Under the pieces are notes generated by a model that had not been told where the DNA came from, searched no databases, and saw only the letters and a list, made by a program, of their open reading frames with translations. Below are positions 8,401-63,119 of a stretch of 64,000 bases of DNA, piece by piece (the stretch's first letter is position 1; every line of letters begins with the position of its first letter). This DNA is from Meyerozyma guilliermondii. Its lineage: Eukaryota. The stretch lies in the NCBI GenBank assembly GCA_051546255.1, contig CP128817.1, positions 62,001 to 126,000 of the forward strand, read 5' to 3'. The translations under genes and the position numbers were made by a program.

Positions 8401-9046
8401 AACTTCTGGTTCTCATGGAACTTATGGTACTTCAGGTACTACTGGTCCTTCTGGTACTGGTCTTTCTGGTTCTCGTGGTGTTACTGGTACTTCGAGCTCT
8501 CATGGAAGTACTGGCACCCATGGTACATCAGGTGATTATGATACTACTGTCACCTATGGTAATACCGGTATTCATGGTACCTCTGGTGATTATGATACTA
8601 CTGGCACCCATGGTGCTTCTGGTGTTGGTTCTGGTTATGGTGCTTCTGGTCTTTCAGGTGCTGGTGCTGGTGCTGGCACCTACGGCTCAGGTGCAGACCA
8701 TTCTTCAGGCACCGGCTACTCAGACTCCAGAGGACTTGACTATGGTTCTGAGTCCAGAGGAGTCAACTCTCACTCTGGAAGTACTACCGGAGGCAATTTT
8801 GGTGCCTCTGGTGTTTCCGACACCTCTGGTGTTTCTGCCTCAGGTGCTGGATTATCCAAAGAAAATAACATCTCGGGGCTCCGCAACTCGGAACTCGGTT
8901 CGAGCGAATATGGTGAAGGAAGAGGCAGTGGCTATGCCACTTCTGGTGCCAACCGTGGAACTGCTGGTGGCTACAGCAGAACCGGTGATGAGCTCGAAAC
9001 AACCGATGAAGCGGATACATCTCAAATTCCCGGTAGTTTTTTTTAG
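2450..9046 (+). CDS. 2198-aa Gly/Ser/Thr/Ala/His-rich, largely disordered hydrophilin-like protein of unknown function
   Basis: Long ORF with GGT/GCT/TCT/ACT codon bias, no signal peptide or TM segment apparent, no Trp and one Cys seen, internal repeats, C-terminal IPGSFF. Confidence 0.85.
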   Translation: MSNTEPEEKQSFMDKLKHPFRTHSRSSSSVKSGELDTSHLLFDHSNLASLSAHDKGVLESAYIEGQRHAEKKYNRKVSRYGFPVIGALGSGNQGSGSNYGSTYGSNHGQLSSDDRKVIDAAYIEGKNSYHANSKGATHGTAGAAAAAGAALAGAGAAGHTSSKGRVVSSSSAGKVVTAPPEVRREPVDRLAPGDFANEKNPTDLSVLGGAGGAAAAQQRGGELSQNTNPVYTNDTEVHEGTGVFYNPKDTQGGVVGNADTTNEATAAHLDKNRNLKTKPSVYEQQDREQEIKDAAYEHGNKEARRDAAEGNKDSSRDAHEDSKSSSSGSKHNHEDPSEVHQTNKSAYNNLGVSGVVDSLRGKSHKNDKNDQYDPRQRNVTGTSAHTTAPLDSSNHTGTGAGAGATGPSHDSRGIGSNTGSNTGSGSHSGGLGAGVGAGVGAGAAAAAAKNASHKNDAGAPPSSSDFDYEREFDALNAKIARTEREIESLESLKKNKPEFNEQASTTAVYHEPYSPPHERETSGNSAASYLKPAALAGAVGGALGFGSASHGKTQPIDDSYNQGVKAGAYDSGSSKAIPSDLNRGLKGGSKDYDTSGAGSGHGTGYGAGSGTGIDSGVHDDGSSKPGILDGAKGALGAAGAVAAGALGYGAADASSVKSEAYQAGQDKFHREQGRGGTALGAGSHPTAHGHNATGSSGHNATGASSHNATGSDRSGHTNALAVAGSTKPATSGSQSVGALDNSKSVNTENTDDSAYHRAGNAGVFGAIAGAAGAAGAAIGMGGHERAGETREAGHTGHTGNTDSLGHTEPGQTGSGNTDRLGHSGTGHSGINDRDIRNTSGVSGPGSATGSTTRSTGSTGSTLDPKAHHDKIASPSLDRVEDDDDTNTSQSSGIIGGITGALGGAAAAIGLGGRSDSDVSRTDADRAHSGTTGSTGSTGISGTTKTAGSTGSTKPTGISGTTNTGTTGPTGISGSTKPGNTAGTSTTRNEGEKSGVTGALASAAGAVGSLGAAGAAAAGLSGSNKASNEHSSLIEPATGYEDVRNAPKHAGGKSTKDVDESSNTGDGVQGVPGLVPSTGDDVSSKKKEKSDTNARNVEAEVTAHNRKHGVTDDKRSLIEIAEGVDPEIKELGTHKQGPTVGESESSTGAEGGVQEVPAQAYANQNEFIRSGGKRGEIEGGSGASHATSSTGAVGKDKSLKHDVSPAPEGKKKSSLIESDTSGKKKSPIESNGRGLDSADQSTAESHHRDLGYGAAAVGTGAGLGSVIHAKDNRDHRDLDTRREVGNHGHTGTSEYGQPGHSSAGYGQSHSPSGHTSGTSAGYGSGHSAGRDISDEAYNSGVRSGAYEAGNVNSAKDVSRTENAEDNHHTGAVGAVLGALGVGAGAKHAHDHHNQGHHQDYNQDYNQGYNQGHQGHQGSHLASGSTGYSGLSESDRSAFYEAGVVQGAREAGHIQAARELSEKPSHHGATGAATGAAVGAAAGTAGASGLGHRSAAGSSAPGLTGTETFQVEVIGVKDREQASKIAHQACKDLDQKGVDLTSGKLIVNAETNEVYKVDETSGPQGRRIDQAGTAGVGAAGAGLASSGVGSGTGAGTGTGVGSGTGRGTHGTSVNQNDGNRDISSGSGSGFGSGSGSALAGAGLGAGAGAGAGTAFAHHSKGVSQPDASFKDDLEEPDLQLRHREHEKAKARLAHAADEGVLGNVAPPTEQPVSGNHGREAAVGGGATAAALAAGNYAKHNHEPRRAQDVGHGSGKEDRLQPSDILVTVQGTSNNSEATKLAHETVNELQDQPDVLKNVKEIQIDSQTGVVTDERGNVIEHVHGQGQHGTNTGRQGGVGAGTAGAAGSSAAAAGYGSGAGASGYGQRTEPGVSGSGYGHESSAGSGYGHTTGSSAPGSGYGQSTSGQGSGHGYAGQGTESGYGHSTATGAAVGAAAGAAGAYGSNIGHADRNTSLPSSTGAHGTSGLSGSHGATGTSGAYGTSGSQGTSGSHGTYGTSGTTGPSGTGLSGSRGVTGTSSSHGSTGTHGTSGDYDTTVTYGNTGIHGTSGDYDTTGTHGASGVGSGYGASGLSGAGAGAGTYGSGADHSSGTGYSDSRGLDYGSESRGVNSHSGSTTGGNFGASGVSDTSGVSASGAGLSKENNISGLRNSELGSSEYGEGRGSGYATSGANRGTAGGYSRTGDELETTDEADTSQIPGSFF

Positions 9047-10202: not shown

Positions 10203-10455
10203 GTGTATATTGTCATAATAAAGTAAAGACGACCGAGAGTAGAAAACCTAGGAGTACTGATCTCTAAGTAGGAATTTACTAATCTAATCTTAAGAAGGAA
10301 TTTACTAATCTGTCACCTTAAGCAAAGTCAGGTTCACCTACACCTTCCCCTCATACTTTTCTCTAGTTATCCACTCATACTTGTCTCTGGGTCTCTTCTT
10401 GTCTCTCCTTAGTTTGTCTACATTCCATATTATATTCTGTGTATTACCTCCATAA

Positions 10456-10647
10456 CTAAGCAGACTTCTCGGCACGAGCCTTGGCCAATGCTCTGGCAGT
10501 TCCGTGCAAAGCGTATCTGTGGTTACGACGGAACTTGGCGTCAACTCCCTTCAAGGATGGGTACTTGTTGGTTCTTGGCTTCTTGATACCGTTCTTGTGG
10601 GCCTTTTTGTTCTGGTTGTGGTTGGTGTGGTTCTTAGATTTAGCCAT
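10456..10647 (-). CDS. RPL29: 60S ribosomal protein eL29
   Basis: [27 protein letters not shown] at 10647. Confidence 0.96.
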
Positions 10648-10649
10648 TT

Positions 10650-10807
10650 CTGATGTTAGTATGAAATTTTTGAGGTGAATGATGGATTGAAAGGTCAAAA
10701 TTAAATTCAATTAGGCTCTGAAATATCTTCTGGTAGTCGGTAGTATGGTATATAGCCGGAATAACTCGATTCTACATGGCTTTCCCTCAAAAAATTGGCG
10801 TACTTAC
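10650..10807 (-). other. 5'-UTR intron of RPL29 (158 nt)
   Basis: GTAAGT donor at 10807, TACTAAC at 10661-10655, CAG acceptor 2 nt before the ATG. S. cerevisiae RPL29 also has a 5'-UTR intron. Confidence 0.85.
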
Positions 10808-10887
10808 TGCTCTGTTGTGTAACTAGTAACGGACGCTCTCAGATTTCTATGAGACTGCGACACAAAAATTTTCATTACACAAAGCTG

Positions 10888-10909
10888 CACGTGCCGGGCT
10901 CAGCCCTAG
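10888..10909. promoter_or_regulatory. Cbf1-type CACGTG plus inverted Tbf1 pair upstream of RPL29
   Basis: CACGTG at 10888-10893 followed by CCGGGCTCAGCCCTAG; RRPE-like AAAAATTTTCA at about 10864-10874. Confidence 0.7.
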
Positions 10910-10988
10910 AATTGGCTGCGAAATAGTTCATTGCAAGCCTATACTCAAGCCTATACACTCATACTCAATAACTCTCTTTATTCATTAA

Positions 10989-11973
10989 TTACTGAACTGG
11001 CTTAACGTCCATGGTCTTAGCCTTCTTGGCGATCTTATCGTTGGCCTTGGAGCCCATGATACCTCCACCCCAGTGCTTTCTGTTTTCCTCGTATTTGTCA
11101 ATAAAGTTGGCATTGACAGTAGAAATCAACTTGGCCAATTCAGCCTCGTCAGCAGAGTTGACTTCGGTCAAAGCAGCGACAGAAGAGGTCTTCTTGTGAA
11201 CCAAAGTACCCAATCTAGCCTTACCCTTGACAATGGCGTATGGAACACCCATCTTTCTACACAAAGCTGGCAAGAAAACAACCAACTCGATAGGGTCGAC
11301 GTCGTTGGCAATCAAAACCAACTTGGCCTTCTTGTTCTCAACCAAAGAAACAACATGGTTCAATCCGTACTTGACAACAACTGGCTTTGGAGAAGCGTCC
11401 TTAGCAGACTTACCCTCAGCGACGGCAGCAGCCTCCTTGGTCAATCTCTCCTTCTTCTCAGCAGCAGTCTCTGGTCTGTACTTGTTGAACAATTTCAAAG
11501 CTTGAGCAGCGGTATTCTTGTCCAAAGTGTTTTGGAACTGAGAAAGTGCTGGAGGAACCTTCAATCTCAAAGAAAGAATCTTCTTTTGTCTTTGCAATCT
11601 GATGTATTCAGGCCATTTCACAAATCTGGACACATTTCTCTTTGGTTGAACAGATTGACCGATTCCAAAGTTCTTTGGAGTAGACTCAATCAATGGGTTC
11701 TTGGCGGCGGCGGAAGAGCCGGCTGACTTTTTAGATAACGGAGCTGGTGCAACTTTCTTGGCGGGCTGTGTCATTGAGTTAGTACGAGTTCTGGTGCCAG
11801 AACCCTCCTATACTCTACAGTATCTCGAGATACTCAGCCTGTGCAAGAGTGCGGCCTGGATACTATCCAGCCTAACTACGGTACATAGAGCGAGGCCACA
11901 CTCCTGACACAAGATCTAAATCAAAGATATGTAAGCAGGAGGTCCAGCGTCTCTAAAAAGTCAAACTTACCAT
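10989..11973 (-). CDS. RPL8: 60S ribosomal protein eL8 (L7Ae family), join(11973..11971,11765..10989)
   Basis: ATG-only first exon; spliced protein reads [10 protein letters not shown]...[14 protein letters not shown]...[25 protein letters not shown]. Confidence 0.96.
11766..11970 (-). other. Spliceosomal intron in RPL8 (205 nt), highly base-paired
   Basis: ATG|GTAAGT donor, TACTAAC at 11784-11778, CAG acceptor at 11766. Confidence 0.9.
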
Positions 11974-34464: not shown

Positions 34465-34488
34465 TTCGGCAAAACACGAAAATGCCGA
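34465..34488. promoter_or_regulatory. Cluster element copy 1 (TCGG-N15-CCGA), putative Zn2Cys6 site
   Basis: TTCGGCAAAACACGAAAATGCCGA; CGG at 34467-69, CCG at 34485-87; TATAAAT at about 34504. Confidence 0.75.
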
Positions 34489-34553
34489 TCGAAGCATGGG
34501 AGCTATAAATTGCCGGTGCTGCCAAAATGGAAATCGTAAGATTAAATCAAAGG

Positions 34554-35867
34554 ATGAGTGTGCCTACAATTGACTACGAACAGTTGTGGGAAGATATCAC
34601 AGTCAAGACTTGCCAATGGAGTCAATTGAAGGAAAATTCTTCCGGTATCAGTAGACTATCGTTATCTGAGGAAGACAAAAAAGTACGCGATTGGTTCGTT
34701 GCCGAATGCAAGTTGTTGGGATGTGAGATAAAAGTTGACCGAGTGGGAAACATATTTGCGGTATACACCGATGTGTTGCATCCGGAATTGAGTCCGATCG
34801 GTATGGGAAGTCATTTAGATACTCAACCCATGGGAGGACGCTTCGATGGAATCTTGGGTGTGGTGTCTGCCTTAGGAGTATTACGAGCTATCAAGCGTAG
34901 TGGTTACAAACCGTACTTTCCACTAGCTGCTGTAAATTGGACTAATGAAGAAGGAGCTCGATATCTGAAAATGTGCATGGGCTCTGGCGTTTGGTGTGGG
35001 CAATTATCGCCTGATGAGATTCTCAAACTTAAAGATATCGATGGAAAAAAAGTCCTGCTGGAATTGGAGGCTATTGGGTACAATGGACCCATAGCGCCTG
35101 ATCACAAGGTTAACAAATTGAGTGCTCACTTTGAATTGCATATTGAGCAGGGTCCAAAACTCGAGGAGATGTTGGCGCATGAAGGCGGCAGTATTGGTAT
35201 AGGAATCGTACAAGGAATCCAAGCCATGAGATGGTACCAAGTTGAAATAGAGGGACAAGAAGGACATGCTGGAGCGCTCGAAATGGTCAGAAGACACGAT
35301 GCATTGGTTGCAGCTTCTAGATTAGTCTTGGACCTCGATGAGGCAGCTAGAGCGACGCAAAGTGTTGCAACCGTTGGTAGGCTCATACCAAAGACGATCG
35401 CTCCAAACACAATAGTGGGAAAGGTTGACTTGATATTCGACTGTAGGGCAATTAAAGAGTCCCAGTTAGACTCGATCATTCAAAAGGTTGAAAGTACAAT
35501 TAAATCACTATCGCAAGATGGAGGTTATCATATTGAAATGCGTCAAATTTGGGCCCACAAAGCTGTAACTTTCAACGAAGATTGCATTGCAGCAGTTGAG
35601 GAAGTACTTGAAACAAGACCAGACATCCCAACATTAAAAATGTTTAGCGCTGCTGGTCATGATAGCGCATCAACGGCTTCTGTAGTTCCCACTACAATGA
35701 TCTTCGTGCCTTCTGTGGGGGGAATTTCCCATAATCCTGCCGAGTTCACAACTAAGGATCAATGTAAAGCTGGTGCAGAAGTCTTACTCGAATCAGTGTT
35801 GGGCTACGACAAAAAACTAAAAGCATCGATGGAGGCACCGGGAAATCAGATTGAGAAAGGTACATAA
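34554..35867 (+). CDS. M20-family N-carbamoyl-amino-acid amidohydrolase (beta-ureidopropionase/Pyd3-like); alternative ATG at 34527
   Basis: GSHLDTQP, DGILGV, WTNEEGAR, HFELHIEQGP, GHAG, SAAGHD, SHNPAE. Confidence 0.9.
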   Translation: MSVPTIDYEQLWEDITVKTCQWSQLKENSSGISRLSLSEEDKKVRDWFVAECKLLGCEIKVDRVGNIFAVYTDVLHPELSPIGMGSHLDTQPMGGRFDGILGVVSALGVLRAIKRSGYKPYFPLAAVNWTNEEGARYLKMCMGSGVWCGQLSPDEILKLKDIDGKKVLLELEAIGYNGPIAPDHKVNKLSAHFELHIEQGPKLEEMLAHEGGSIGIGIVQGIQAMRWYQVEIEGQEGHAGALEMVRRHDALVAASRLVLDLDEAARATQSVATVGRLIPKTIAPNTIVGKVDLIFDCRAIKESQLDSIIQKVESTIKSLSQDGGYHIEMRQIWAHKAVTFNEDCIAAVEEVLETRPDIPTLKMFSAAGHDSASTASVVPTTMIFVPSVGGISHNPAEFTTKDQCKAGAEVLLESVLGYDKKLKASMEAPGNQIEKGT

Positions 35868-35900
35868 AAGGATTCATAGATTTTGTCGAGCATTCTATAT

Positions 35901-37515
35901 CTATTCGTTAATCGATACTATTTGAAAAAACGAGTTCAAGTCATTACTAATTGACCGGGCAGCCATGTTTCCACACGCAGATTGAAATTGGAGAATTGAC
36001 AAAGGTTCTAATATTTCATAAAAGCCTTTCCGGCCCTTCATTATGTTACTGATAAGAACTATCAGAATGGCAGAATACAAGTAATTTGAGTCGTAAAACC
36101 CTAATTTTGATATCAATTGATTATCTTTGCAAAACTTCATTAGTTTGATGATGCTTGTAGCAGCAGCAAGTCCTGTTATGACTGGTTGCGACGACCAAAT
36201 TGTGTCATTGAATTTTGGAGAATTCATAGACGCTAAATTGAAATAGTACAAAAAAACTGGGCGTAGTGCCAAAATGGTCGTCTGGTTGTAAAACAAAAGT
36301 AACGATGCGTCCTTTCTTTCTTTAACAGTGGATGTTTCAAGTGAGGGTCTAATAGCAGCAGGTAGCTCTTTTTTAAACTGCTCGAGACTATCCAAGACAG
36401 AAAAGATTTGCAGCATGTCTTTGGCGATATTAAAGGATTTGGCATAGATGGTCGAGAGTATTTTCGACGTAATAACCGCCAACTTGATGTTCAAAGTAAA
36501 GTAAGTGTGATCGAAAAAGAGTCCTTCCTCGTCTGTTCCTAGCTGCGTCCTTGAAGGTAACGGAACATCCACATGGTCAACGCATATATGCTGCGGGGTG
36601 CCCAAGAGCGAAACACAAAACATTTCCATAACAAATGCCGTCCACCATGTTCGTGATCTATGTTCCTTTACTACTGGACTGACGTTTGACCCAGGCAGTT
36701 TGTGAAGGCCGATATGGAGGGCTTTTCTTACGGCACACGCACTATGAATTGAAGCAAGTCCTCTCTGATTGAGGATAAGGAGGTACCACGCAAATAGGAT
36801 GTGGGTTTGTATTGCAATCAAGGAGAAACTCGAGTTAACTTCATGCAGATACTTGAGGGCCAATTTGAAGTACAGATAGCCCGGAAAATCGTCCGTGACA
36901 ATCGTATTTTTATCGTACACAGCTCCCAAGGACATCACTAGACAGAATTGCGATACAACCATAGGATGATTTCGATCTATACCGTTAGAGTAAATAGAAT
37001 CGATGTTCAATAGGAGCTCGTCGTATAAAAAAAAGTGATAGTCATATTGCAAAAAACTCAAAAACTTTTTAAGGTTGTCCACAACTGCCACGCCAGCGGG
37101 AAGTGTCGCATCGTCATCGACATCAATATTTGGGGTGTCAAGCTCTTCGCTATTGAATTTTAATGCCAGATCTGGGTCGATCACATTAGCGACTCTGGCT
37201 AAGAATTCTTGCGTGTTGCTAGAAAGGAGCGGCTCGAAATGAGCAGTAGAGTCAAATTCTTTCGGCAGAGGACTCTGGCTATCTTCAAAAAGTCGTAATC
37301 TTTCTCGCAAACCCTCAAGTTCTCGAAGACTTATGTTAATTCGCCGATCCTTGCCCAGGTAGACACAGCGTACATTTCGAGCAGCACAAGACCGGCAAGA
37401 CGGACGTTCACCGGAGCATTTTGTTTTCGACTTGTGGCACCTGTTACACCTACATCTGTTAATAATGGGCCCCGGATTTCATTTTGGTCACAACTTACGC
37501 TGCCGATGTCCTCAT
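35901..37515 (-). CDS. Zn(II)2Cys6 transcription factor, join(37515..37499,37449..35901)
   Basis: A 49-nt intron at 37498-37450 (GTAAGT, TATTAAC, TAG) yields MRTSAACNRCHKSKTKCSGERPSCRSCAARNVRCVY with six Cys. Middle-homology region reads IGLHK...EHRSRTWWT...LGTP. The ORF track misses the DNA-binding domain. Confidence 0.9.
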
Positions 37516-37593
37516 AGATTAATTGCAGTCAAGGCAATTTTGCGTGAAAGAACCCGATCTAATATCGTATTTTTGTGCGGCTCATCATGCGAG

Positions 37594-37617
37594 TTCGGCA
37601 ACTATCCAAAATGCCGA
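37594..37617. promoter_or_regulatory. Cluster element copy 2 (TCGG-N15-CCGA) in the TF/permease divergent promoter
   Basis: TTCGGCAACTATCCAAAATGCCGA; CGG at 37596-98, CCG at 37614-16; TATAAAA at about 37661. Confidence 0.75.
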
Positions 37618-37713
37618 TCTGTATCGCTCGCTCGAACCGCTCCAACAGATGTCTCAAAGTTATAAAAGAGAGGTGCTTTGGTCCATTAAGGACCACGGTA
37701 CAGGGAAGGAGAC

Positions 37714-39174
37714 ATGATGGAAAAGCTGGAGTTCTCAGAAAGTGTTCTTAAAAGTGAAGAGTTGAGCACTCACGAGGAACAAGATCAAGAGTTCAAGAAC
37801 ATCGAGAAGAGAGTATTAAGAAAATTTGATTTCATCATCATGCCATGTCTTTGCCTAGCCTATCTCTTCTCCACCTTGGACAAGGCAAATATTGGGAATG
37901 CTAAGGTGGCTGGTATGAGTGACGACTTGGGATTGAGTGGTAATCAATTTGGAAATGTTGTAAGTTTACTTTATATCACCTATGTGATAGTTGAAACGCC
38001 ATTGGCACTCATTCTCAAGTTTGTTGGAGCAAAGTATGTTTTGTCAGTCTTGTGTTTTCTTTTCGGTATATGCTGCTTGTGTACTGCCCTTGCAACCGAC
38101 TACCATTCCCTCTTGGCATGCAGAATGTTAGTGGGACTTTTCGAAGCAGGTATAATTCCTTGCATCAATGTGTACTTGAGTATGTTGTACACAAAAAAAG
38201 AAGTTGCAAAAAGATGTGCAGCCGTTTACTCTGCTGGTGCCGTCTCTGGAGCGTTTGGAGGTTTATTGGCTTATGGGTTGACTAAGATTAACACCGACAA
38301 ATGGTCCGGATGGCAGTTCTTGTTCGCCGTGGAAGGTGGTTTGACCATTTTGGCAGCTCCAGTAATAATTCTTCTTCTTCCTCGTAACGTAAGGGAAGCT
38401 TGGTGGCTCAATAAGGAAGAGAGAAAAGTATTGACCACACGATTGGCAACTTACTCTGATTTTCACCAAGATGAGAAATTCATGTGGTCTGAGGTTGTTA
38501 GAGGATTAAAGGATATCAACACAGTTGTGGTATGCCTCTATCAGTTTTGTGTGGATGTCACTTTGTTTGGAATATCAACTTTTTTACCCTCGATTATTCT
38601 TGGTATGGGCTACGATTCGTATAAGACTCAGCTTATGACGATCCCATTCTATGTGGTTGCCCTTCTTAGTTTTGCAACAACCTGTTACTTTTCGGACAAG
38701 ACAGGTAATCGAGGGTTCTTTATTGCTGGAGGAGTGGTTTGTGAAATTATTGGTTATATCATTTTGATTGCTAGTAACCCGCTTGGCTCCAGATATTTCG
38801 GTTGTTTGATGATCGGCCTAGGAATCTACATCTGTTCAGGTTTAAGTGTTATGTGGATTAACAACAACAATGCTGGACATTATAAGAGAGCTACAGCCGC
38901 AGGTATGTGTACCACTATTGGAAATATCGCTGGTGTACTCGCAGGTCAAATTTACACAGCAGATACGGCTCCACGTTATTTTAAAGGATTGAAGATTGCG
39001 CTAGGAATGACATGTGCAGCTTTGGTGTTTTGTTCACTTATGATCTATAATTATTACCTGATGAATAAGAAGAAAGAGAGAATTATAGCCGCTATGAGTG
39101 CTGAGGAGATTGACCAAATGAATGCCAATTTGGCTCATAAAGATACTGATTTAACTTTCAAGCTTTTACTTTAA
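37714..39174 (+). CDS. MFS anion:cation symporter, Dal5/Tna1 family
   Basis: RKFDFIIMP, LDKANIGNAK, GLFEAG, GWQFLFAVEG, AGHYKRA, APRY; about 12 hydrophobic segments. Confidence 0.88.
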   Translation: MMEKLEFSESVLKSEELSTHEEQDQEFKNIEKRVLRKFDFIIMPCLCLAYLFSTLDKANIGNAKVAGMSDDLGLSGNQFGNVVSLLYITYVIVETPLALILKFVGAKYVLSVLCFLFGICCLCTALATDYHSLLACRMLVGLFEAGIIPCINVYLSMLYTKKEVAKRCAAVYSAGAVSGAFGGLLAYGLTKINTDKWSGWQFLFAVEGGLTILAAPVIILLLPRNVREAWWLNKEERKVLTTRLATYSDFHQDEKFMWSEVVRGLKDINTVVVCLYQFCVDVTLFGISTFLPSIILGMGYDSYKTQLMTIPFYVVALLSFATTCYFSDKTGNRGFFIAGGVVCEIIGYIILIASNPLGSRYFGCLMIGLGIYICSGLSVMWINNNNAGHYKRATAAGMCTTIGNIAGVLAGQIYTADTAPRYFKGLKIALGMTCAALVFCSLMIYNYYLMNKKKERIIAAMSAEEIDQMNANLAHKDTDLTFKLLL

Positions 39175-39334
39175 ACTCTTTACATAGATTAGAATTGCAT
39201 AGATATGTTTCTTGGGTTAAGTTATCATTACGAAGCATGAGCTTTGTTATATAGAAGTAAATAGAAAAGCAAACTTTTATCTCATAACAGTACTATGTTT
39301 GTAAACTGCTCTAATCTCACAACACTTACATTTA

Positions 39335-40878
39335 CTACATATAAGATGGTCTCCACTCAGATATCCACTTGTTAGTTGGAACAGCCAACTGACTCTTACC
39401 TCTAGGTACGAATGCGCCAGATTTGGATGCATCATCGGTGAATTTGCCTTCCTCAAAGACAACCTTACCCTTCAAAATATTGTAACGGGGCCAGTTATGG
39501 ATATTAAAACCTTCAAAAGGCGTATAGTCACACTCAGTATGCAAATTCTTGGAAGAGATCGAATTTTTGTAAGTTCCTTCAGGATACCAAATAACAATGT
39601 CCGCGTCCGACACACCCGGGTTCAAAGTGCCTTTTTGTGGGTATAACCCATAAAGTTTGGCAGGGTTAATGCAATTAAGCTCAACAAATTTGGTCCATGA
39701 AATCTTCTTTTCTAGAACTCCGAAGCTTGCGAGAAGAGCTAACCTTGTTTCAACACCAGGGCAGCCATTAGGGATCCACTTGAACTCACCGTTGTGGCCG
39801 TTCTTGAAAGCGATACGCTTTCCATCTTCACTGTGATATTTGGTAGGACAGTGATCTGACGAGAAAATAGTAATGGAATTATCCTCGAGTCCGTTCCATA
39901 CCGCTTGTTGGTCCTTTTCGCTATGGCGGGGTGGTGGCGAGCAAAGGTATTTAGCACCTTCAAAAGGATCGTGACAATGTATCCGCTTCAAGTCCTCAGC
40001 TTTGAGAAGGAGATACTGAGGACATGTTTCCGCAAATACACTTAAGCCTCTGGAGCGTGCTTCTCTAATTGATCTTATAGCCTCTGGTGCTGAAACATGG
40101 ACGAAGAGCACGGGAGAATCCATTGCTTCAGACATAACAATTGCCCTGTTCGTTGCTTCTCCCTCAAAGATAGAAGGACGAGAAATCGCATGATAATAGG
40201 GTTCTGTGTGACCCTGTTCCTCCAACGAGTCGATCATCCACTGGATCATATCCCCATTTTCGGCGTGCAACATGACCGTGATTCCACACTTCCTGGCATA
40301 ATAGAGTACTGTCATCAAATCATAATCCCTCATTTGCAACTTGGGGTAGGTCATAAACAACTTAATGCTCGTCACTTTCCCCTCCTCTGCCAATAAAGTC
40401 AATTGTTGCTCAAGACAGTCTTTCTCAATTTTATACATGACTAAATGCAATGAATAATCACAATAAAGCATGTCTCCACACTTTTCTTGACACTTTTTTA
40501 TAGTTCGGATTAGAGCTTCGGCGCCCAGGTCATTTGGATCTTGTGATGCAAATGCAATGATAGTTGTTGTTCCTCCCGCAGCTGCGCTTCGGGTTCCCAG
40601 TTCGAAGTCGTCCGAAATTTTTCCAAAGAGATCTAATGGCTCTTTTAGGTGAACATGAGCATCTACACCACCTGGAGTAACTATTGCACCCTCCGCATCG
40701 ATCACTTTTCTTGACGTCGCTTTTGACAAGTCCCCAATTTTTGCTATCTTTCCATCTTGCACACCGATATCGGCCCTCCTTAAATACTCGGTGCACACAA
40801 ATCCATTCTAGTTGTTAGAGAAACATTTGATTCAACAAAGCACCTTTGGTTACTTACCGTAATTATTAAATCGAACAT
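39335..40878 (-). CDS. Dihydropyrimidinase/hydantoinase (Pyd2-like cyclic amidohydrolase), join(40878..40858,40807..39335)
   Basis: A 50-nt intron at 40857-40808 (GTAAGT, CTCTAAC, TAG) gives MFDLIITNG. Metal motifs DAHVH, SIKLFMTY (carbamylated Lys), LHAEN, FVHVS, SDHC. C-terminal EWRPxY as in Lachancea kluyveri Pyd2. Confidence 0.92.
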
Positions 40879-40940
40879 CTTTTTTGTTAGTTGCGGATTG
40901 TAAGAAGCTTTTATTGATTTTGCAGCCATACAGGCTTACT

Positions 40941-41010
40941 TTCGGCACGCGCCTTAATTGATCGGTGGTTGCGAAAAATGCCGAACTTGCATTCGGCATG
41001 AGATGCCGAA
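40941..41010. promoter_or_regulatory. Cluster element copy 3 plus three extra TTCGGCA half-sites in the hydantoinase/monooxygenase divergent promoter
   Basis: TCGGTGGTTGCGAAAAATGCCGA (CGG 40963-65, CCG 40981-83). Half-sites at 40941-47, 40992-99 and 41003-10; TATAAA at 41021. Confidence 0.78.
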
Positions 41011-41058
41011 GTGATTTCAATATAAATTGAAGGGTACCGCCTCCATTGAAATCAGGAA

Positions 41059-42333
41059 ATGACGCACGATAGATTGGATATAGTTGTGGTTGGTGGCGGA
41101 ATTGCTGGTTTATCAGCAGCCATTTCTATCGCATTAAATGGCCACAACGCAATTGTCTTAGAAGCCGCAAAGGAAGTTAAAGAAGTGGGTGCAGGTATCC
41201 AAATCTCCAGTAATTCAACAAAAATCTTGAAAAGATGGGGCATTTGGGATACCTTAGAGCCGAAGGCTAACATCCCACTCTTCACTGATTTCAGACATTA
41301 TAAAACAAATGAAATTTACTCGGTAGCAGATCATACTTTGATGGCTGAGCTCTATGGAGGCCCATTCGGGAATCTTCACAGAGCTACATTACATCAGCTG
41401 TTGTTGGATAAAGCTTTGTCTCTTGGTGTAGTTGTGCAACCCAACTCACGGGTACATAGCATTAATTTTGACGAACCGTCAGTAACACTCGAGAATCAAA
41501 TTGTGGTTAGAGGTGATTTTATTGTTGGTGCAGACGGTTACAAGTCAAAGTGCTCGGAAAATTTTAGGGGAGCTCATGATAAGCCAAAGTTTTCAGGGGA
41601 TATGGCATACCGGATTATTGTCGATTTTGACGACGTTAGTCAAGATGTGCTCTTGGAGGATATAGCAAACGACAACTGTATCCACTACTGGATGGGCCCA
41701 GATACTCACTTTGTATCTTATGCCTGCGACAATAATAGATATTATAACGTTGTTATCCTCACCAAGTGTGACCGAGAACCAGATTTCGGGACGTCATCAA
41801 GTGAAGCTGACTTACAGGAGATGTGCGCCAAATTCAAAGATTGGCATCCACTTCTTCAACAAATGTTAACAAAGGTGAAAGCAACCTCTACTTGGCAATT
41901 GTGGATGAGGGATACGGCATCTGAATGGTCCCATGCTAACGGACAATTTACCTTAGCGGGAGATGCTGCTCATGTAACTGTCCCATATATAGGTCAAGGA
42001 GCCGGAATGGGCATTGAGGACGGGTGTGTTATAGGTGAGGCGCTTGGCAGAATCAAATCAAAAAAGGACTTGGCAACGGCAGTTCAAGCGTACGACAAAG
42101 TCAGAATCGAAAGATGCGCCAGAATTGTTCAGATGAGCAGAGACATGGGTGTCATAATGCACTTGCAGGATGGTCCAGCAGCCGAGAGCAGAAACGAGAT
42201 TATGAAGTTGCCCTTTCCTCTCAAAGGTGACCCAAATCTCTGGAGAGACCCTTCCAATGCAGAGTGGCTATATGGTTTCGATCCCTTCAAGGCAACGGAA
42301 GAAGCATTCAATAACTGCAGTCATAATCTGTAA
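41059..42333 (+). CDS. Group A FAD-dependent monooxygenase (salicylate hydroxylase/Mnx1/HxnX-like)
   Basis: GGGIAG, EVGAGIQ, HRATL, GADG, GDAAH...GQGAGMGIEDG, C-terminal HLQDGP...WLYGFD. Confidence 0.9.
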   Translation: MTHDRLDIVVVGGGIAGLSAAISIALNGHNAIVLEAAKEVKEVGAGIQISSNSTKILKRWGIWDTLEPKANIPLFTDFRHYKTNEIYSVADHTLMAELYGGPFGNLHRATLHQLLLDKALSLGVVVQPNSRVHSINFDEPSVTLENQIVVRGDFIVGADGYKSKCSENFRGAHDKPKFSGDMAYRIIVDFDDVSQDVLLEDIANDNCIHYWMGPDTHFVSYACDNNRYYNVVILTKCDREPDFGTSSSEADLQEMCAKFKDWHPLLQQMLTKVKATSTWQLWMRDTASEWSHANGQFTLAGDAAHVTVPYIGQGAGMGIEDGCVIGEALGRIKSKKDLATAVQAYDKVRIERCARIVQMSRDMGVIMHLQDGPAAESRNEIMKLPFPLKGDPNLWRDPSNAEWLYGFDPFKATEEAFNNCSHNL

Positions 42334-45004: not shown

Positions 45005-45520
45005 TTATTTTCTTCTCTCATCAAACTCCTGCGCTGTGAGCCTCTTTCCGCCTGGTACTCCGAATTCTGGAATACCTTTGTCAACGTTGCTAAAAACGCT
45101 TTCAATTATAGGCAATGGTTTACCGAGCCATAATGCCCGGGAAGTATGATCCAAGAGATCCTCACCGGTTTGAGGGTGAATCAACACCGAGAGAGTGCCA
45201 TGGTACAACTGGAACCATGAAAGTAACCTAACAAATATTTTAGGCCGAACAACATCAACTTCCCAAAAATGGGTCACATGGGGCCCAATGACATTGTCAT
45301 TTTTCAATTTCTTCACTATTATGGATCCTTCCTTGCCTTCTTCTTCGAATTCTTTGAGTAACTTGTTGCGAAGTTTGGTAGCTTCAGCAACCGATTGCGA
45401 ATTATGTCCTACATAATATACGTGGAAATCATAGTATTTTACAGGGTGAGCGTACTCAAGGCCGTAGATACTTGTATAGGCCTTTGAGGTATCTTTTGGT
45501 AAACTTGTCAAGTACTCCAT
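45005..45520 (-). CDS. DOPA 4,5-dioxygenase family protein (fungal/bacterial type)
   Basis: YDFHVYY, IGPH, LSVLIHPQTG, DHTSRALWLGKPLP. Confidence 0.82.
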   Translation of the reverse strand: MEYLTSLPKDTSKAYTSIYGLEYAHPVKYYDFHVYYVGHNSQSVAEATKLRNKLLKEFEEEGKEGSIIVKKLKNDNVIGPHVTHFWEVDVVRPKIFVRLLSWFQLYHGTLSVLIHPQTGEDLLDHTSRALWLGKPLPIIESVFSNVDKGIPEFGVPGGKRLTAQEFDERRK

Positions 45521-56943: not shown

Positions 56944-58071
56944 ATGACCATTGAAAACGAAGAAACCATCTTTCCCACCCATAATGAATTTCGCTCAGAT
57001 ACGTTCACCGTGCCCACACGGAGCATGATGGAGGCAGCTTGGAACAACGCTACGTTTGGAGACTCTGTTTATAAGGAAGATGCCATCACTCTTCAACTCG
57101 AACAAAAAATGTGCGACCTTACTGGGAAAGAAGCTGCTCTTTTTTGTGTCAGTGGAACCCTTTCCAACCAGATTGGTCTCCGAGCCAACTTGGTGCAACC
57201 TCCCTACTCAATCCTCTGTGATTATCGTGCCCATGTATTCATTCACGAAGCTGGTGGATTAGCCACCTTGTCGCAGGCTATGGTGCACCCGGTTCATCCC
57301 GCAAATGGAAATTACTTGACGCTTGAAGATATCGAAGAACACTGGACTGCGGACGATGGAGATATCCATAGCGCACCCACTAAAGTCATCTCGTTGGAAA
57401 ACACTCTCCACGGAATAATTACGCCAATTGAAGAAATCAGACGAATTAGTCAGTTTGCCAAAAAAAATAATCTCAAACTTCATCTCGATGGTGCTCGCTT
57501 ATGGAATGCCAGTGCTGCTACCGGTGTCTCCATTAAGGAGTACTGCTCGTACTTTGATTCAGTTTCATTGTGCTTGTCAAAATCTCTCGGTGCTCCAATG
57601 GGGTCCATTTTGGTTGGTACCAAAAAATTCATTGAAAAAAGTAATCACTTCAAAAAACAAAACGGTGGTGGTATAAGGCAAGCCGGTATCATGTCCAGCA
57701 TGGCCATAACGGCTATTGACGAAAACTTTTCCAAACTCAAGCGTTCGCATGCATTAGCCAAACAAGTGGGCGACTTTTGCGTCGAAAATGGAATCAAACT
57801 CGAATCTCCCGTCGATACCAACTTTGTTTTCATCGACTTGAAGGCTAACCGTATGGATGATGGGCTTCTAGTAAGCAAGGGTGTTGAGCATGGATTAAAG
57901 TTGATGGGTGGTCGTATTGCATTCCACTATCAATTGAGCCAAGAAAGCGTTGACAAAGTCAAACAGGTGATTTTGGAATGCTACCATGCAGCCCTTAAGA
58001 ACCCCGCAAAACATGCCAAGAACAGAATGTACAACTACGATATGATGAGTGCTGCTGTCGGCAGCGTATAA
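56944..58071 (+). CDS. GLY1: Low-specificity L-threonine aldolase
   Basis: EFRSDTFTVPT, HEAGG, LENT, HLDGARLWNA, PLP-lysine LSKSLGAP. Confidence 0.94.
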   Translation: MTIENEETIFPTHNEFRSDTFTVPTRSMMEAAWNNATFGDSVYKEDAITLQLEQKMCDLTGKEAALFCVSGTLSNQIGLRANLVQPPYSILCDYRAHVFIHEAGGLATLSQAMVHPVHPANGNYLTLEDIEEHWTADDGDIHSAPTKVISLENTLHGIITPIEEIRRISQFAKKNNLKLHLDGARLWNASAATGVSIKEYCSYFDSVSLCLSKSLGAPMGSILVGTKKFIEKSNHFKKQNGGGIRQAGIMSSMAITAIDENFSKLKRSHALAKQVGDFCVENGIKLESPVDTNFVFIDLKANRMDDGLLVSKGVEHGLKLMGGRIAFHYQLSQESVDKVKQVILECYHAALKNPAKHAKNRMYNYDMMSAAVGSV

Positions 58072-62075: not shown

Positions 62076-63119
62076 CTAAAAACCATCGAATGTGGTTCCC
62101 GTGCTTCCAATAAGCATCTTTGCCACCACTAGGTCCATATTGGACATTCCCACGATTTTTTGCACAACGATGTTTTCTGCCATAGTAAAGTCTTGTCTAT
62201 CAGTTTTCAGCAACTGTGCCAATTCTACCATTTGCGAGCGAGACAAACCAGCATCCGCCACTTCTCCTGCTTCCTCGAAAACCCCCTCAGCTGTGTCTAC
62301 CACCAATTTCTTTCCGGAAGCCTTGAGAGCACTCAAGTCGAGCTCTCGCATGGTGGGCTTATAAGAGCCAATTAAAGATACAAATACTGGCACTTTGGGG
62401 TCCTTATTGAGCGCCGAAAAGTCAATGGCAGGCAGGGTGCTCGGAAGACATCCAAAGACGACACAACTCCCGGATAACTTTTGATTGATAATTTCTGTGT
62501 GTGTAGCAACTTGATACAGATAGGCATTTACCGTAGCAATATTTGTACCAAAATCCTTCTTCAATTCTTTCGCAAACTCTTGGGCTTTTTCGTAGCTTCG
62601 GTTTACAACAGTGACACTTTTGATGTTAGGAAACAAAATGAGTGTCAACTTTACGTGCCAGTAAGCTTGCGGTCCAACTCCAAACACAGTCAAGCTCGAT
62701 GTCATGGTCTCGGGCACATTTAAAGGGTCAATTGCATTGACTAAGCCTATAGAACTAGCCAATGCTGTTCGAAAGGGAGTAACTGTTTTGGCATTCACCA
62801 CCCCAGTTAATGTTCCATCGATGTCATCAACAGTAGCAATAAAGCCCTGAAACCCTAAACCTTTTTGTGAGTTTGACGGACCTCCGCTGATGATCTTCAC
62901 GCCTGTGGCATCGGGTGCAACGCAGGGCATAAAGAGATGAGTCAAATCGGAGTTTTTGGTAGTTGTTGATCTCACCGTTCGAGGAGGAACAATTTCTGGA
63001 TTGTGCTGGTAATCACGAAGGCTGCCAAGGAGTGCTGGTTGGTAATGGTTTAGTATGGAGTCTCTGGTGAGCGATTTGTCTAGAAACTCGTGGACATTTT
63101 GGTCACTAACTATCTTCAT
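62076..63119 (-). CDS. Ornithine cyclodeaminase/mu-crystallin family protein
   Basis: HLFMP, GVKII, TPFRTALAS, FGVGPQAYWH, IGSYKPTMRELD, EAGE, KIVGMSNMD. Confidence 0.85.
   Translation of the reverse strand: MKIVSDQNVHEFLDKSLTRDSILNHYQPALLGSLRDYQHNPEIVPPRTVRSTTTKNSDLTHLFMPCVAPDATGVKIISGGPSNSQKGLGFQGFIATVDDIDGTLTGVVNAKTVTPFRTALASSIGLVNAIDPLNVPETMTSSLTVFGVGPQAYWHVKLTLILFPNIKSVTVVNRSYEKAQEFAKELKKDFGTNIATVNAYLYQVATHTEIINQKLSGSCVVFGCLPSTLPAIDFSALNKDPKVPVFVSLIGSYKPTMRELDLSALKASGKKLVVDTAEGVFEEAGEVADAGLSRSQMVELAQLLKTDRQDFTMAENIVVQKIVGMSNMDLVVAKMLIGSTGTTFDGF

Follow-up and report, generated by a model that had tools for sequence, protein, structure and literature searches.

Why should a Group A FAD monooxygenase lie among genes for the hydrolysis of cyclic ureides in a yeast? 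The locus lies in a 64-kb window (the whole stretch of DNA analysed, 64,000 nucleotides, whose numbering is used here), where adjacent genes encode an M20 carbamoylase, a Zn2Cys6 transcription factor, a permease, a PYD2-family dihydropyrimidinase and the monooxygenase. The cluster is real and conserved, and the five-gene observation as such is confirmed by a reading-frame check of the window sequence: each of the five is there with an open reading frame, and, as had been noted originally, the catalytic residues are intact, in all three of the enzymes. The reading adopted here, which we rate slightly better than even, is of a compact nitrogen-scavenging cluster in a budding yeast, probably one of the CUG-Ser clade, with a hydrolytic pyrimidine-catabolism core and its own Zn2Cys6 activator, of which the monooxygenase is a genuine member.

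The gene models needed some correction. The main ORFs of the regulator and the dihydropyrimidinase have no ATG (the stop-to-stop ORF of the former has none ahead of its zinc cluster), and each requires a short 5′ intron of the type GTAAGT...TAAC..AG. The minus-strand regulator gene (35901..37515, about 523 aa, Pfam Zn_clus and Fungal_trans) has exon 1 at 37515-37499, an intron at 37498-37456 and exon 2 at 37455-35901, with splice signals in the sequence; the dihydropyrimidinase gene, also on the minus strand (39335..40878, 497 aa, Pfam Amidohydro_1), has exon 1 at 40878-40858 (MFDLIIT), an intron at 40857-40808 and exon 2 at 40807-39335. On the plus strand are the carbamoylase (34527..35867), the permease (37714..39174, 486 aa, Pfam MFS_1) and the monooxygenase (41059..42333, 424 aa, Pfam FAD_binding_3). 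The carbamoylase ORF opens at 34527, only 23 bp after a TATAAA box, and homologues begin at its Met10, so that 34554, the start chosen originally, is probably the right one. Four of the genes form two divergent pairs, regulator with permease and dihydropyrimidinase with monooxygenase, just as described before. The flanking genes had been called TCA17 and BSP1-like: a Sedlin_N domain, identified by Pfam in the left neighbour, fits TCA17, or else TRS20, but the right neighbour has no Pfam match. A reductase, noted as missing from the cluster, is found neither there nor anywhere else in the window.

The carbamoylase (Pfam M20 and M20_dimer) is of the N-carbamoyl-amino-acid amidohydrolase, beta-ureidopropionase or beta-alanine-synthase, type, scoring 355 bits with TIGR01879, above the cut-off of 204. 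Its best solved relative is the beta-alanine synthase of S. kluyveri (276 bits), all of whose catalytic and substrate residues it retains (H114, D125, E159, E160, H226, Q229, H262, N309, R322, H397 and H421; roles from PMC12169670), yet it scores higher with proteins of filamentous fungi and bacteria, its nearest kin, which are of the N-carbamoyl-L-amino-acid hydrolase type (347-399 bits). A dihydropyrimidinase homologue is present in 29 of the 80 nearest bacterial carbamoylase loci, and among eight bacterial loci scanned with Pfam a PreT/PreA-type dihydropyrimidine dehydrogenase adjoins the pair in three and a RutR-like regulator in three. Against 2fty, the solved dihydropyrimidinase of S. 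kluyveri, the dihydropyrimidinase scores 529 bits, with solved allantoinases reaching only 123-133 bits; it exceeds the TIGR02033 cut-off (423 bits against 393) and nests in a budding-yeast clade of 100% support with L. kluyveri PYD2. None of the 83 invariant fungal columns is altered in it, H62, H64, K167, Y172, H199, H255 and D358 (S. kluyveri numbering) among them, and it has only two cluster-specific columns; the column comparison gives no sign of re-specialisation, nor anything suggesting adaptation to an oxidised ring. With the invariant columns and the beta-alanine-synthase substrate residues kept, the hydrolases appear to be ordinary enzymes acting on dihydrouracil and beta-ureidopropionate, in agreement with their first description as Pyd2/Pyd3-like. 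It is very likely that the pair acts on ureides of dihydropyrimidine or hydantoin type, and the cluster probably breaks down those of dihydropyrimidine type.

The best solved relatives of the monooxygenase are 8gsm (315 bits) and 8x38 (256 bits). Five of the seven pocket residues of PcMNX1, whose roles are taken from PMC13559804, are kept: Gln79, the catalytic His247, Tyr251, Leu264 and Pro337, with Tyr134 changed to Phe and Phe395 to Met; the orthologue in Priceomyces carsonii has identical states at all seven positions. The residues that bind carboxylate and phenol are among those retained. At position 337 proline is the decarboxylating state, in contrast to the glutamine of 3-hydroxybenzoate 6-hydroxylase (PMC13559804). 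The enzyme thus keeps the Gln, His, Tyr, Pro chemistry set of MNX1, the decarboxylating 4-hydroxybenzoate/vanillate hydroxylase, and by its residues is of the MNX1-like, decarboxylating-hydroxylase type, in keeping with the hydroxylation, often with decarboxylation, proposed for it. Its close relatives are 94% and 66% identical, the latter being the P. carsonii protein PRCAT00002472001; every other is at most 38% identical, and among 1.84 billion representatives it makes up just one cluster at 50% identity. As so isolated a lineage, it is a divergent enzyme of that type and no standard MNX1 orthologue. The proposal that its substrate is an N-heteroaromatic finds nothing to show it, all its closest characterised relatives using carbocyclic acids (4-hydroxybenzoate, vanillate and syringate).

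The permease had been assigned to a Dal5/Tna1 type, which is right only as far as the anion:cation-symporter MFS family, with 192 bits against TIGR00893 being below the cut-off of 395. Among named Atlas clusters the nearest is 'Vitamin h protein', and the permease scores 118 bits with HpaX. The allantoate permease Dal5 is a member of the family.

A CGG-N15-CCG site occurs once in each of the three cluster promoters and at no other place in the 64 kb: TCGGCAAAACACGAAAATGCCGA ahead of the carbamoylase (34466..34488, plus strand, with TATAAA following at 34504), TCGGCAACTATCCAAAATGCCGA in the divergent regulator/permease promoter (37595..37617, plus strand, TATAAA at 37661) and TCGGTGGTTGCGAAAAATGCCGA in the 180-bp divergent promoter common to dihydropyrimidinase and monooxygenase (40962..40984, plus strand, TATAAA at 41021). 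The last also holds, at 40993..41009, a palindrome of the same half-site, TCGGCAT-GAG-ATGCCGA (CGG-N9-CCG). All three plus-strand genes have the identical order of site, TATAAA and ATG. The full 23-bp form, TCGG-N10-AAATGCCGA, has three matches in the window, one per cluster promoter, against 0.03 expected, a figure to be read in the light of the motif having been found post hoc; AAAATGCCGA has three against 0.26. A fairer control is given by random sets of three regions, of the same lengths as the cluster promoters, which shared a k-mer of at least 10 in 31 of 2000 cases when drawn from other intergenic DNA and in 6 of 2000 when the whole window was sampled. The cluster's own Zn2Cys6 activator, described from the outset as its regulator, thus appears from this site to control all three promoters, and the five genes probably share the one regulator; from the DNA alone we infer both its binding of the 23-bp site and co-induction of the genes.

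In P. carsonii, matches to the monooxygenase (PRCAT00002472001, 66%), dihydropyrimidinase (2473001, 73%) and carbamoylase (PRCAT00002476001, 59%) are all on one contig of 1,972,668 bp, and the spacing of tags 2472, 2473 and 2476, with two intervening (2474 and 2475), matches the gene order of the window, keeping in mind that three proteins were matched and the two middle genes are read from tag numbering alone. The single-contig tags support the five genes forming a conserved unit, and recurrence of the order there, with the 23-bp site in all three promoters, points to an arrangement that is more than chance. In the relative with 94-96% identity, monooxygenase and dihydropyrimidinase are each assigned to a 6,061-nt contig, in all probability a shared one. 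A further species has the dihydropyrimidinase (82%) and carbamoylase (70%), each assigned to a contig of 19,120 nt, and no monooxygenase match, so that the monooxygenase may be dispensable, or may be off that contig. The conservation search proposed originally has a divided outcome: the monooxygenase is linked to the hydrolases in P. carsonii, but its best match and that of the carbamoylase are on different contigs in both of the checkable filamentous fungi, Lindgomyces and Massarina, and a homologue (26% identity) is nearby in only one of the 80 bacterial loci. The link is, in the genomes compared, seen only in a small yeast group.

That restricted distribution, and the species of the 19,120-nt contig, would suit a monooxygenase that is a chance or historical neighbour with no functional or regulatory tie to a PYD-type cluster. 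This is very improbable given the adjacency in P. carsonii, where protein identity is down to 66%, a 180-bp promoter holding both the cluster site and the extra palindrome, and a site-TATA-ATG layout the same as that of the carbamoylase and permease genes; membership of the monooxygenase in the regulon is likely. Under one regulator there could still be two functions, with the hydrolases and permease serving dihydrouracil, dihydrothymine and beta-ureidopropionate, and the monooxygenase independently serving a carbocyclic para-hydroxy or para-amino benzoate (4-hydroxybenzoate, vanillate or 4-aminobenzoate) by way of a product that never meets the hydrolases. The nearest characterised relatives, 4-hydroxybenzoate and vanillate 1-hydroxylases, the retained carboxylate- and phenol-binding residues and the lack of re-specialisation in the hydrolases all speak for it, as does the permease with its HpaX score, PMC5566891 describing aromatic acids as also carried by anion:cation-symporter MFS transporters. 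Nevertheless it is hard to see why a carbon-catabolic step should have a 180-bp divergent promoter and a cluster-specific site in common with nitrogen-releasing hydrolases, or why the adjacency should persist despite the divergence (66%); Pfam reveals no ring-cleavage dioxygenase for the hydroquinone product in the cluster, and the enzyme, a lone lineage, differs from a standard MNX1 orthologue. We regard such a division as rather unlikely.

Quite improbable is a 'hydantoinase process', in which 5-substituted hydantoins rather than dihydropyrimidines yield L-alpha-amino acids and the monooxygenase turns an imidazol(on)e acid into the hydantoin; an example would be hydantoin-5-propionate passing through N-carbamoyl-L-glutamate to glutamate. 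The process corresponds to the first candidate of the original prediction, which ran from 2-imidazolone-4-carboxylate by way of hydantoin to glycine. The leaning of the carbamoylase to N-carbamoyl-L-amino-acid hydrolases over beta-alanine synthase (347-399 bits against 276) is in its favor, an anion-symporter-related permease suits an anionic hydantoin, and two enzymes that act on the ergothioneine/hydantoin-propionate route, ErtE (293 bits) and ErtD (200 bits), are matched weakly, but these scores are far under cut-offs of 520 and 650. Against it also are a dihydropyrimidinase in the PYD2 clade with unchanged residues, the kin of the carbamoylase in reductive pyrimidine operons (the three of eight bacterial loci with dihydropyrimidine dehydrogenase), and the poor fit of a five-membered ring to the para geometry of MNX1-type enzymes. 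Another candidate, from urate or methylurates to allantoin-type products via an HpxO-like urate hydroxylase, allantoinase and M20 allantoate amidohydrolase, is extremely improbable: all three enzyme families are distant relatives, the permease family takes in Dal5, and NF006771 'allantoate amidohydrolase' reaches 377 bits against its cut-off of 399, but HpxO (143 against 500), allantoinase TIGR03178 (216 against 358) and AllC TIGR03176 (214 against 598) all fall far short, solved allantoinases are remote (123-133 bits against 529 for dihydropyrimidinase), and the pocket of the monooxygenase is a carboxylate-binding one of MNX1 type. Overall, the original prediction is partly supported: in the unit, its probable shared regulation and the gene families. 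Nothing shows an N-heterocyclic substrate, and the urate/allantoin route is disfavoured.

With a nitrogen-scavenging cluster as the preferred reading, each of the substrates is a predicted one. The anion imported by the permease would be an N-carbamoyl amino acid or else the acid used by the monooxygenase; the dihydropyrimidinase would open a cyclic ureide of dihydrouracil, dihydrothymine or hydantoin type; and the carbamoylase would strip off carbamoyl, leaving a beta- or alpha-amino acid and releasing NH3 and CO2. The monooxygenase would most likely use NAD(P)H and O2 to hydroxylate, at the ipso position and with release of CO2, an aromatic or heteroaromatic acid whose carboxylate has an oxo or hydroxy substituent in the para position. 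That its product feeds the hydrolases is possible, though on the doubtful side; the serial route preferred would start from a 2-oxo-pyrimidine-5-carboxylate, for instance 5-carboxyuracil, which would give 5-hydroxyuracil for the hydrolases, though 5-carboxyuracil specifically is an unlikely choice of acid. If true, such a route would be an oxidative entry to the pyrimidine branch for yeasts without dihydropyrimidine dehydrogenase.

All five genes of the cluster (window 34527-42333) are present and intact. The other genes of the 64-kb window are of housekeeping type with no further pyrimidine-catabolic gene among them, and the cluster is a compact island within it. The plus-strand carbamoylase gene (Pfam Peptidase_M20 and M20_dimer) has an open reading frame from 34527. 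Because its homologues begin at what is Met10 of the window protein and a TATAAA box is positioned 23 bp before 34527, translation probably starts at 34554, as the original prediction had it. On the minus strand, the long ORFs of the regulator and the dihydropyrimidinase have no ATG at their heads, and reading of the DNA reveals for each a short 5′ exon followed by an intron of the form GTAAGT...TAAC...AG. For the regulator (Pfam Zn_clus and Fungal_trans) exon 1 is 37515-37499, the intron 37498-37456 and exon 2 37455-35901; for the dihydropyrimidinase (Pfam Amidohydro_1) exon 1, encoding MFDLIIT, is 40878-40858, the intron 40857-40808 and exon 2 40807-39335. The permease has a Pfam MFS_1 domain and the monooxygenase FAD_binding_3.

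Residues, model score and tree all point to the dihydropyrimidinase being of the PYD2 family (EC 3.5.2.2). It scores 529 bits against the solved dihydropyrimidinase of S. kluyveri, and its 423 bits against TIGR02033 are above the equivalog cut-off of 393. In a 33-row tree it is in a fully supported five-member group within a budding-yeast clade (21 rows, SH-aLRT 100) that also holds L. kluyveri PYD2, to which it is 48% identical. It has kept all 83 columns that are invariant across the 33 fungal sequences, and the signature of a binuclear metal site (HxH, the carboxylated Lys, two His and Asp) is present with the catalytic Tyr, the metal ligands and that tyrosine being H62, H64, K167, Y172, H199, H255 and D358 in S. 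kluyveri numbering. Only two columns set the cluster-type dihydropyrimidinases apart from the rest.

The carbamoylase, aligned to 2v8g, keeps H114, D125, E159, E160, H226, Q229, H262, N309, R322, H397 and H421, which in S. kluyveri beta-alanine synthase are, according to PMC12169670, the zinc ligands, the catalytic Glu159 and a Gln, an Asn, an Arg and two His that anchor the substrate. It scores 276 bits against that enzyme and 347-399 bits against Pezizomycotina ‘amidases’ and bacterial carbamoylases. In a tree without a yeast PYD3 row, it and two yeast orthologues form a long-stemmed clade among Pezizomycotina rows. It is thus not evidently an orthologue of PYD3 and, judged by these comparisons, its ancestry appears to be different from that of the dihydropyrimidinase.

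Bacterial kin of the carbamoylase offer a view of its usual company. Within 8 kb at 80 fetched loci, a dihydropyrimidinase homologue is found at 29, a monooxygenase homologue at one and a permease homologue at none. The one monooxygenase, of the FAD_binding_3 type and 26% identical to the window enzyme, is at positions 10312-11319 (minus strand) of locus L042, where it adjoins an alpha/beta hydrolase and a PnrA-like ABC binding protein and where no dihydropyrimidinase occurs within 8 kb. A Pfam scan covering 53 of 92 ORFs, from eight of nine chosen bacterial loci, found a PreT/PreA-type dihydropyrimidine dehydrogenase at three of the eight and a RutR-like regulator at three, with an NCS1 permease in one and a class-III aminotransferase in one. 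Since the dehydrogenase is present there, the bacterial relatives at three loci look like beta-ureidopropionases of the reductive pathway.

The monooxygenase belongs to a very rare lineage, as an exhaustive HMMER search of 1.84 billion representatives yielded just one protein with more than 38% identity, that of P. carsonii at 667 bits; the next best match scored 278 bits, and the enzyme constitutes a single 50%-identity cluster in that collection. Of solved structures the best is 8gsm, named ‘4-hydroxybenzoate decarboxylase’ (315 bits), followed by 8x38, ‘Decarboxylative Vanillate 1-Hydroxylase’ (256 bits), and 8r2t, GsMNX1 (218 bits). The 3-hydroxybenzoate 6-hydroxylase structures 4bk1, 4bk2, 4bk3 and 4bjy score about 135-140 bits, and NicC (5eow and 8uiq) about 125 bits (124-127). 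In a 24-row tree the enzyme and its yeast relatives form a long-stemmed clade among Pezizomycotina rows, the same pattern as for the carbamoylase. Such nesting could have come about through transfer from a filamentous ascomycete or equally through widespread loss among yeasts.

The pocket of PcMNX1, as described in PMC13559804, has His247 as base, Gln79 and Tyr251 as carboxylate ligands, Tyr134 in support of Gln79 and Leu264 in the cavity, while Pro337 (Gln in 3-hydroxybenzoate 6-hydroxylase) and the pocket-wall residue Phe395 (Trp there) switch the reaction to decarboxylation. With an offset of three between the numbering of PMC13559804 and the 8x38 chain, Gln79, His247, Tyr251, Leu264 and Pro337 are seen to be kept both in the window enzyme and in that of P. 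carsonii. The motifs GAGIQ, THFVSY and TVPY occur in these two and in P0001, a further protein aligned alongside them. Tyr134 is replaced by Phe (PFGNLHRA) and Phe395 by Met (IMHLQDGP) in the window enzyme and likewise in the P. carsonii protein, and the loop after the GAGIQ glutamine has Ser-Ser in the window enzyme where relatives have Pro-Pro. These residues suggest an enzyme built for ipso-hydroxylation with loss of CO2, its substrate being an aryl carboxylate with a para hydroxy (or oxo) group and its pocket having changed somewhat.

The permease and the regulator can be assigned at the level of family. Against TIGR00893, the model for anion:cation symporters, the permease scores 192 bits, below the cut-off of 395, and the closest Atlas cluster to carry a name, at family level only, is ‘Vitamin h protein’. 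A place for the permease in that symporter class, the Dal5, Tna1 and Vht1 group, was thus judged by family models and is tentative. Among solved structures the regulator matches only the generic zinc clusters of Gal4, Ppr1 and Put3, at 20-24 bits, which is not diagnostic.

A 23-bp site, TCGG-N10-AAATGCCGA, is present in all three cluster promoters, at 34466-34488 upstream of the carbamoylase, at 37595-37617 between the divergent regulator and permease genes, and at 40962-40984 between the divergent dihydropyrimidinase and monooxygenase genes. It is an inverted CGG-N15-CCG, the kind of site bound by Zn2Cys6 dimers. On both strands of the 64 kb, with one mismatch allowed, there are three matches where 0.03 are expected, all of them in the cluster promoters, though as the pattern was built from these three sites themselves a control with random triples was added. 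The longest k-mer common to the three promoters is 10 bases, and random triples of the same lengths shared one of at least 10 bases 31 times in 2000 when drawn from intergenic DNA elsewhere in the window and 6 times in 2000 when drawn from the whole of it; beyond that control, support comes from the upstream TCGG, which has exactly the same spacing in each of the three sites. Upstream of the carbamoylase, permease and monooxygenase, all on the plus strand, the order is site, TATAAA, ATG, and the 180-bp promoter shared by the monooxygenase and the dihydropyrimidinase carries an extra palindrome of the same half-site. Of the evidence at hand, these features, which are at the level of DNA, speak most strongly for the monooxygenase being part of the regulon.

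Several other genes of the window deserve mention. A 171-amino-acid protein of the DOPA 4,5-dioxygenase family (Pfam PF08883, E 1.8e-34) is encoded at 45005-45520 on the minus strand, 2.7 kb beyond the monooxygenase with two unrelated genes between. An extradiol-type dioxygenase so close to a monooxygenase of hydroquinone-forming type is noteworthy, but the gene has no copy of the promoter site and for that reason was left out of the cluster. Two genes for amino-acid metabolism downstream of the cluster, one of the beta-eliminating lyase family (threonine-aldolase-like; 56944-58071, plus strand) and one of the ornithine cyclodeaminase/mu-crystallin family (62076-63119, minus strand), are likewise not tied to it by the site. 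Two tandem genes whose products contain flocculin type 3 repeats (Pfam PF13928; 23755-24981 and 25715-27112, plus strand) are in a stretch with a raised GC content of 0.48-0.51, and a 2198-amino-acid ORF at 2450-9046 (plus strand), with no Pfam match at E <= 1e-6, is in the GC-richest part of the window (0.50-0.52).

Codon usage suggests that the host is a yeast of the CUG-Ser clade. In eight genes with 4697 codons CTG occurs 26 times. The three enzymes (carbamoylase, dihydropyrimidinase and monooxygenase) have seven CTG codons, and where these fall homologues show Ser, Thr, Ala or a charged residue and never a conserved Leu, which is consistent with P. carsonii being the nearest named relative. 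A scan for tRNA genes found none in the window, and hence no tRNA-Ser(CAG). CUG-Ser decoding alters two or three residues in each enzyme and affects no conclusion.

Gene order is conserved between the window and P. carsonii, judged from three proteins and the spacing of their locus tags. The monooxygenase (PRCAT00002472001, 66% identity), dihydropyrimidinase (PRCAT00002473001, 73%) and carbamoylase (PRCAT00002476001, 59%) of that species were all found by homologue searches on one contig of 1,972,668 bp, and the tag spacing implies that the two tags between the last two (2474 and 2475) fill the slot occupied in the window by the permease and the regulator. In a relative with 94-96% identity the monooxygenase and the dihydropyrimidinase are each reported with a contig of 6,061 nt. 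In another species the dihydropyrimidinase (82%) and carbamoylase (70%) are each reported with a contig of 19,120 nt; the homologue search returned no monooxygenase from it, and the enzyme may be absent there. In the sequences compared, no link of the monooxygenase to the hydrolase pair was seen beyond this group of yeasts, and in this one relative inside it the link may be missing too.

The cluster has the same two enzyme families and the same order of reactions as the PYD2/PYD3 branch of L. kluyveri, and neither is accompanied by a dihydropyrimidine dehydrogenase. To our knowledge, budding yeasts lack PYD1, the gene for that enzyme, even where PYD2 and PYD3 are present. Unlike the L. kluyveri genes, those for the window hydrolases have a permease, a regulator of their own and a monooxygenase as cluster partners. 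Reductive pyrimidine operons of bacteria (PreT/PreA or PydA, dihydropyrimidinase, beta-ureidopropionase and a RutR-like repressor) share with the yeast cluster the hydrolase pair, a transporter and a dedicated regulator, though the transporter and regulator families are different; their entry enzyme is an Fe-S/flavin reductase (at three of the eight loci scanned), whereas the yeast cluster has none and has a monooxygenase instead. With the MNX1 types (Candida parapsilosis Mnx1, PcMNX1 and GsMNX1; 8gsm, 8x38 and 8r2t) the window monooxygenase has in common the fold of group A flavoproteins, the catalytic His with a Tyr four positions further on, the glutamine of GAGIQ and the Pro that favors decarboxylation over simple hydroxylation. 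However, P. carsonii and the other close relatives aside, its identity to the nearest proteins in two collection searches is at most 38%, and its genomic partners are ureide hydrolases and not dioxygenases for hydroquinone or hydroxyquinol.

The component families were already known. What appears new is that PYD2 shares a cluster with a carbamoylase that seems not to descend from PYD3, that the cluster has its own regulator and a defined candidate operator and, most of all, that an orphan monooxygenase of MNX1-like type is conserved as their partner. Full-text searches that did not extend to subscription journals found no description of a regulated PYD2/PYD3 yeast cluster and nothing relevant to a flavin-dependent iso-orotate step.

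That the genes form a cluster under one regulator with PYD-type ureide hydrolysis as its core is highly probable. Read most simply, the yeast pair would open dihydrouracil or dihydrothymine to an N-carbamoyl-beta-amino acid and cleave this to a beta-amino acid, NH3 and CO2. The monooxygenase is probably a true member of the cluster, and for it to be a chance neighbor, with a promoter site in common and a gene order retained in P. carsonii, is highly improbable. That its product enters the hydrolases is rather doubtful. The hydrolases are unaltered, all characterized relatives of the monooxygenase use carbocyclic substrates, and the link between them has the restricted distribution already described. 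The main rival, also unlikely, has the monooxygenase acting in parallel on a carbocyclic acid, as the substrates of those relatives would lead one to expect; the cluster has no ring-cleavage dioxygenase for a hydroquinone product. A reading in which the hydrolases serve hydantoins and L-amino acids is very unlikely, the dihydropyrimidinase being an enzyme of the PYD2 clade with unchanged residues. The original prediction also had urate giving allantoin-type products among its candidates. This has been discarded on the scores of the HpxO, allantoinase and AllC models (NF033623, 143 bits against a cut-off of 500; TIGR03178, 216 against 358; TIGR03176, 214 against 598) and is now extremely improbable; the loosely named subfamily NF006771 gave 377 bits against a cut-off of 399.

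If the monooxygenase does feed the hydrolases, its best-fitting chemistry would be decarboxylative hydroxylation of a 2-oxo-pyrimidine-5-carboxylate, which is proposed because of the ring geometry and the state of Pro337. 5-Carboxyuracil is a diaza analogue of 2,4-dihydroxybenzoate and of 6-hydroxynicotinate, and the product, 5-hydroxyuracil, has a 5-oxo-dihydro tautomer, in formal terms a dihydropyrimidine. The 6-hydroxynicotinate 3-monooxygenase NicC and Aspergillus HxnX, homologous decarboxylating hydroxylases of nicotinate catabolism that act on an N-heteroaromatic acid though much more distant than MNX1, may serve as chemical precedent; the nicotinate clusters use other ring-opening enzymes. 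A nicotinate-type function itself was set aside by reasoning: the product 2,5-dihydroxypyridine is not a ureide that a dihydropyrimidinase could open, and the window cluster has neither a nicotinate hydroxylase nor a dioxygenase. The full oxidative entry, in which the monooxygenase would turn a pyrimidine carboxylate, for instance 5-carboxyuracil derived from thymine, into a 5-hydroxy or 5-oxo pyrimidine for the hydrolases to open and strip of its nitrogen, is quite unlikely as it stands.

Although PYD2 and PYD3 of yeasts were described more than twenty years ago, the source of their substrate in species that lack the reductase is still a question. With five genes, one candidate operator and one orphan monooxygenase, the locus makes that question testable. 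Should the monooxygenase not feed the hydrolases, there is still a clean PYD-type nitrogen cluster with a defined candidate regulator site, together with a divergent decarboxylating hydroxylase that might find use in biocatalysis. Should it do so, this would be a new oxidative entry to pyrimidine or ureide catabolism and a new class of substrate for MNX1-type enzymes, and oxidative entry of this kind would add to the reductive and URC routes a third way for eukaryotes to break down the pyrimidine ring, one not described before.
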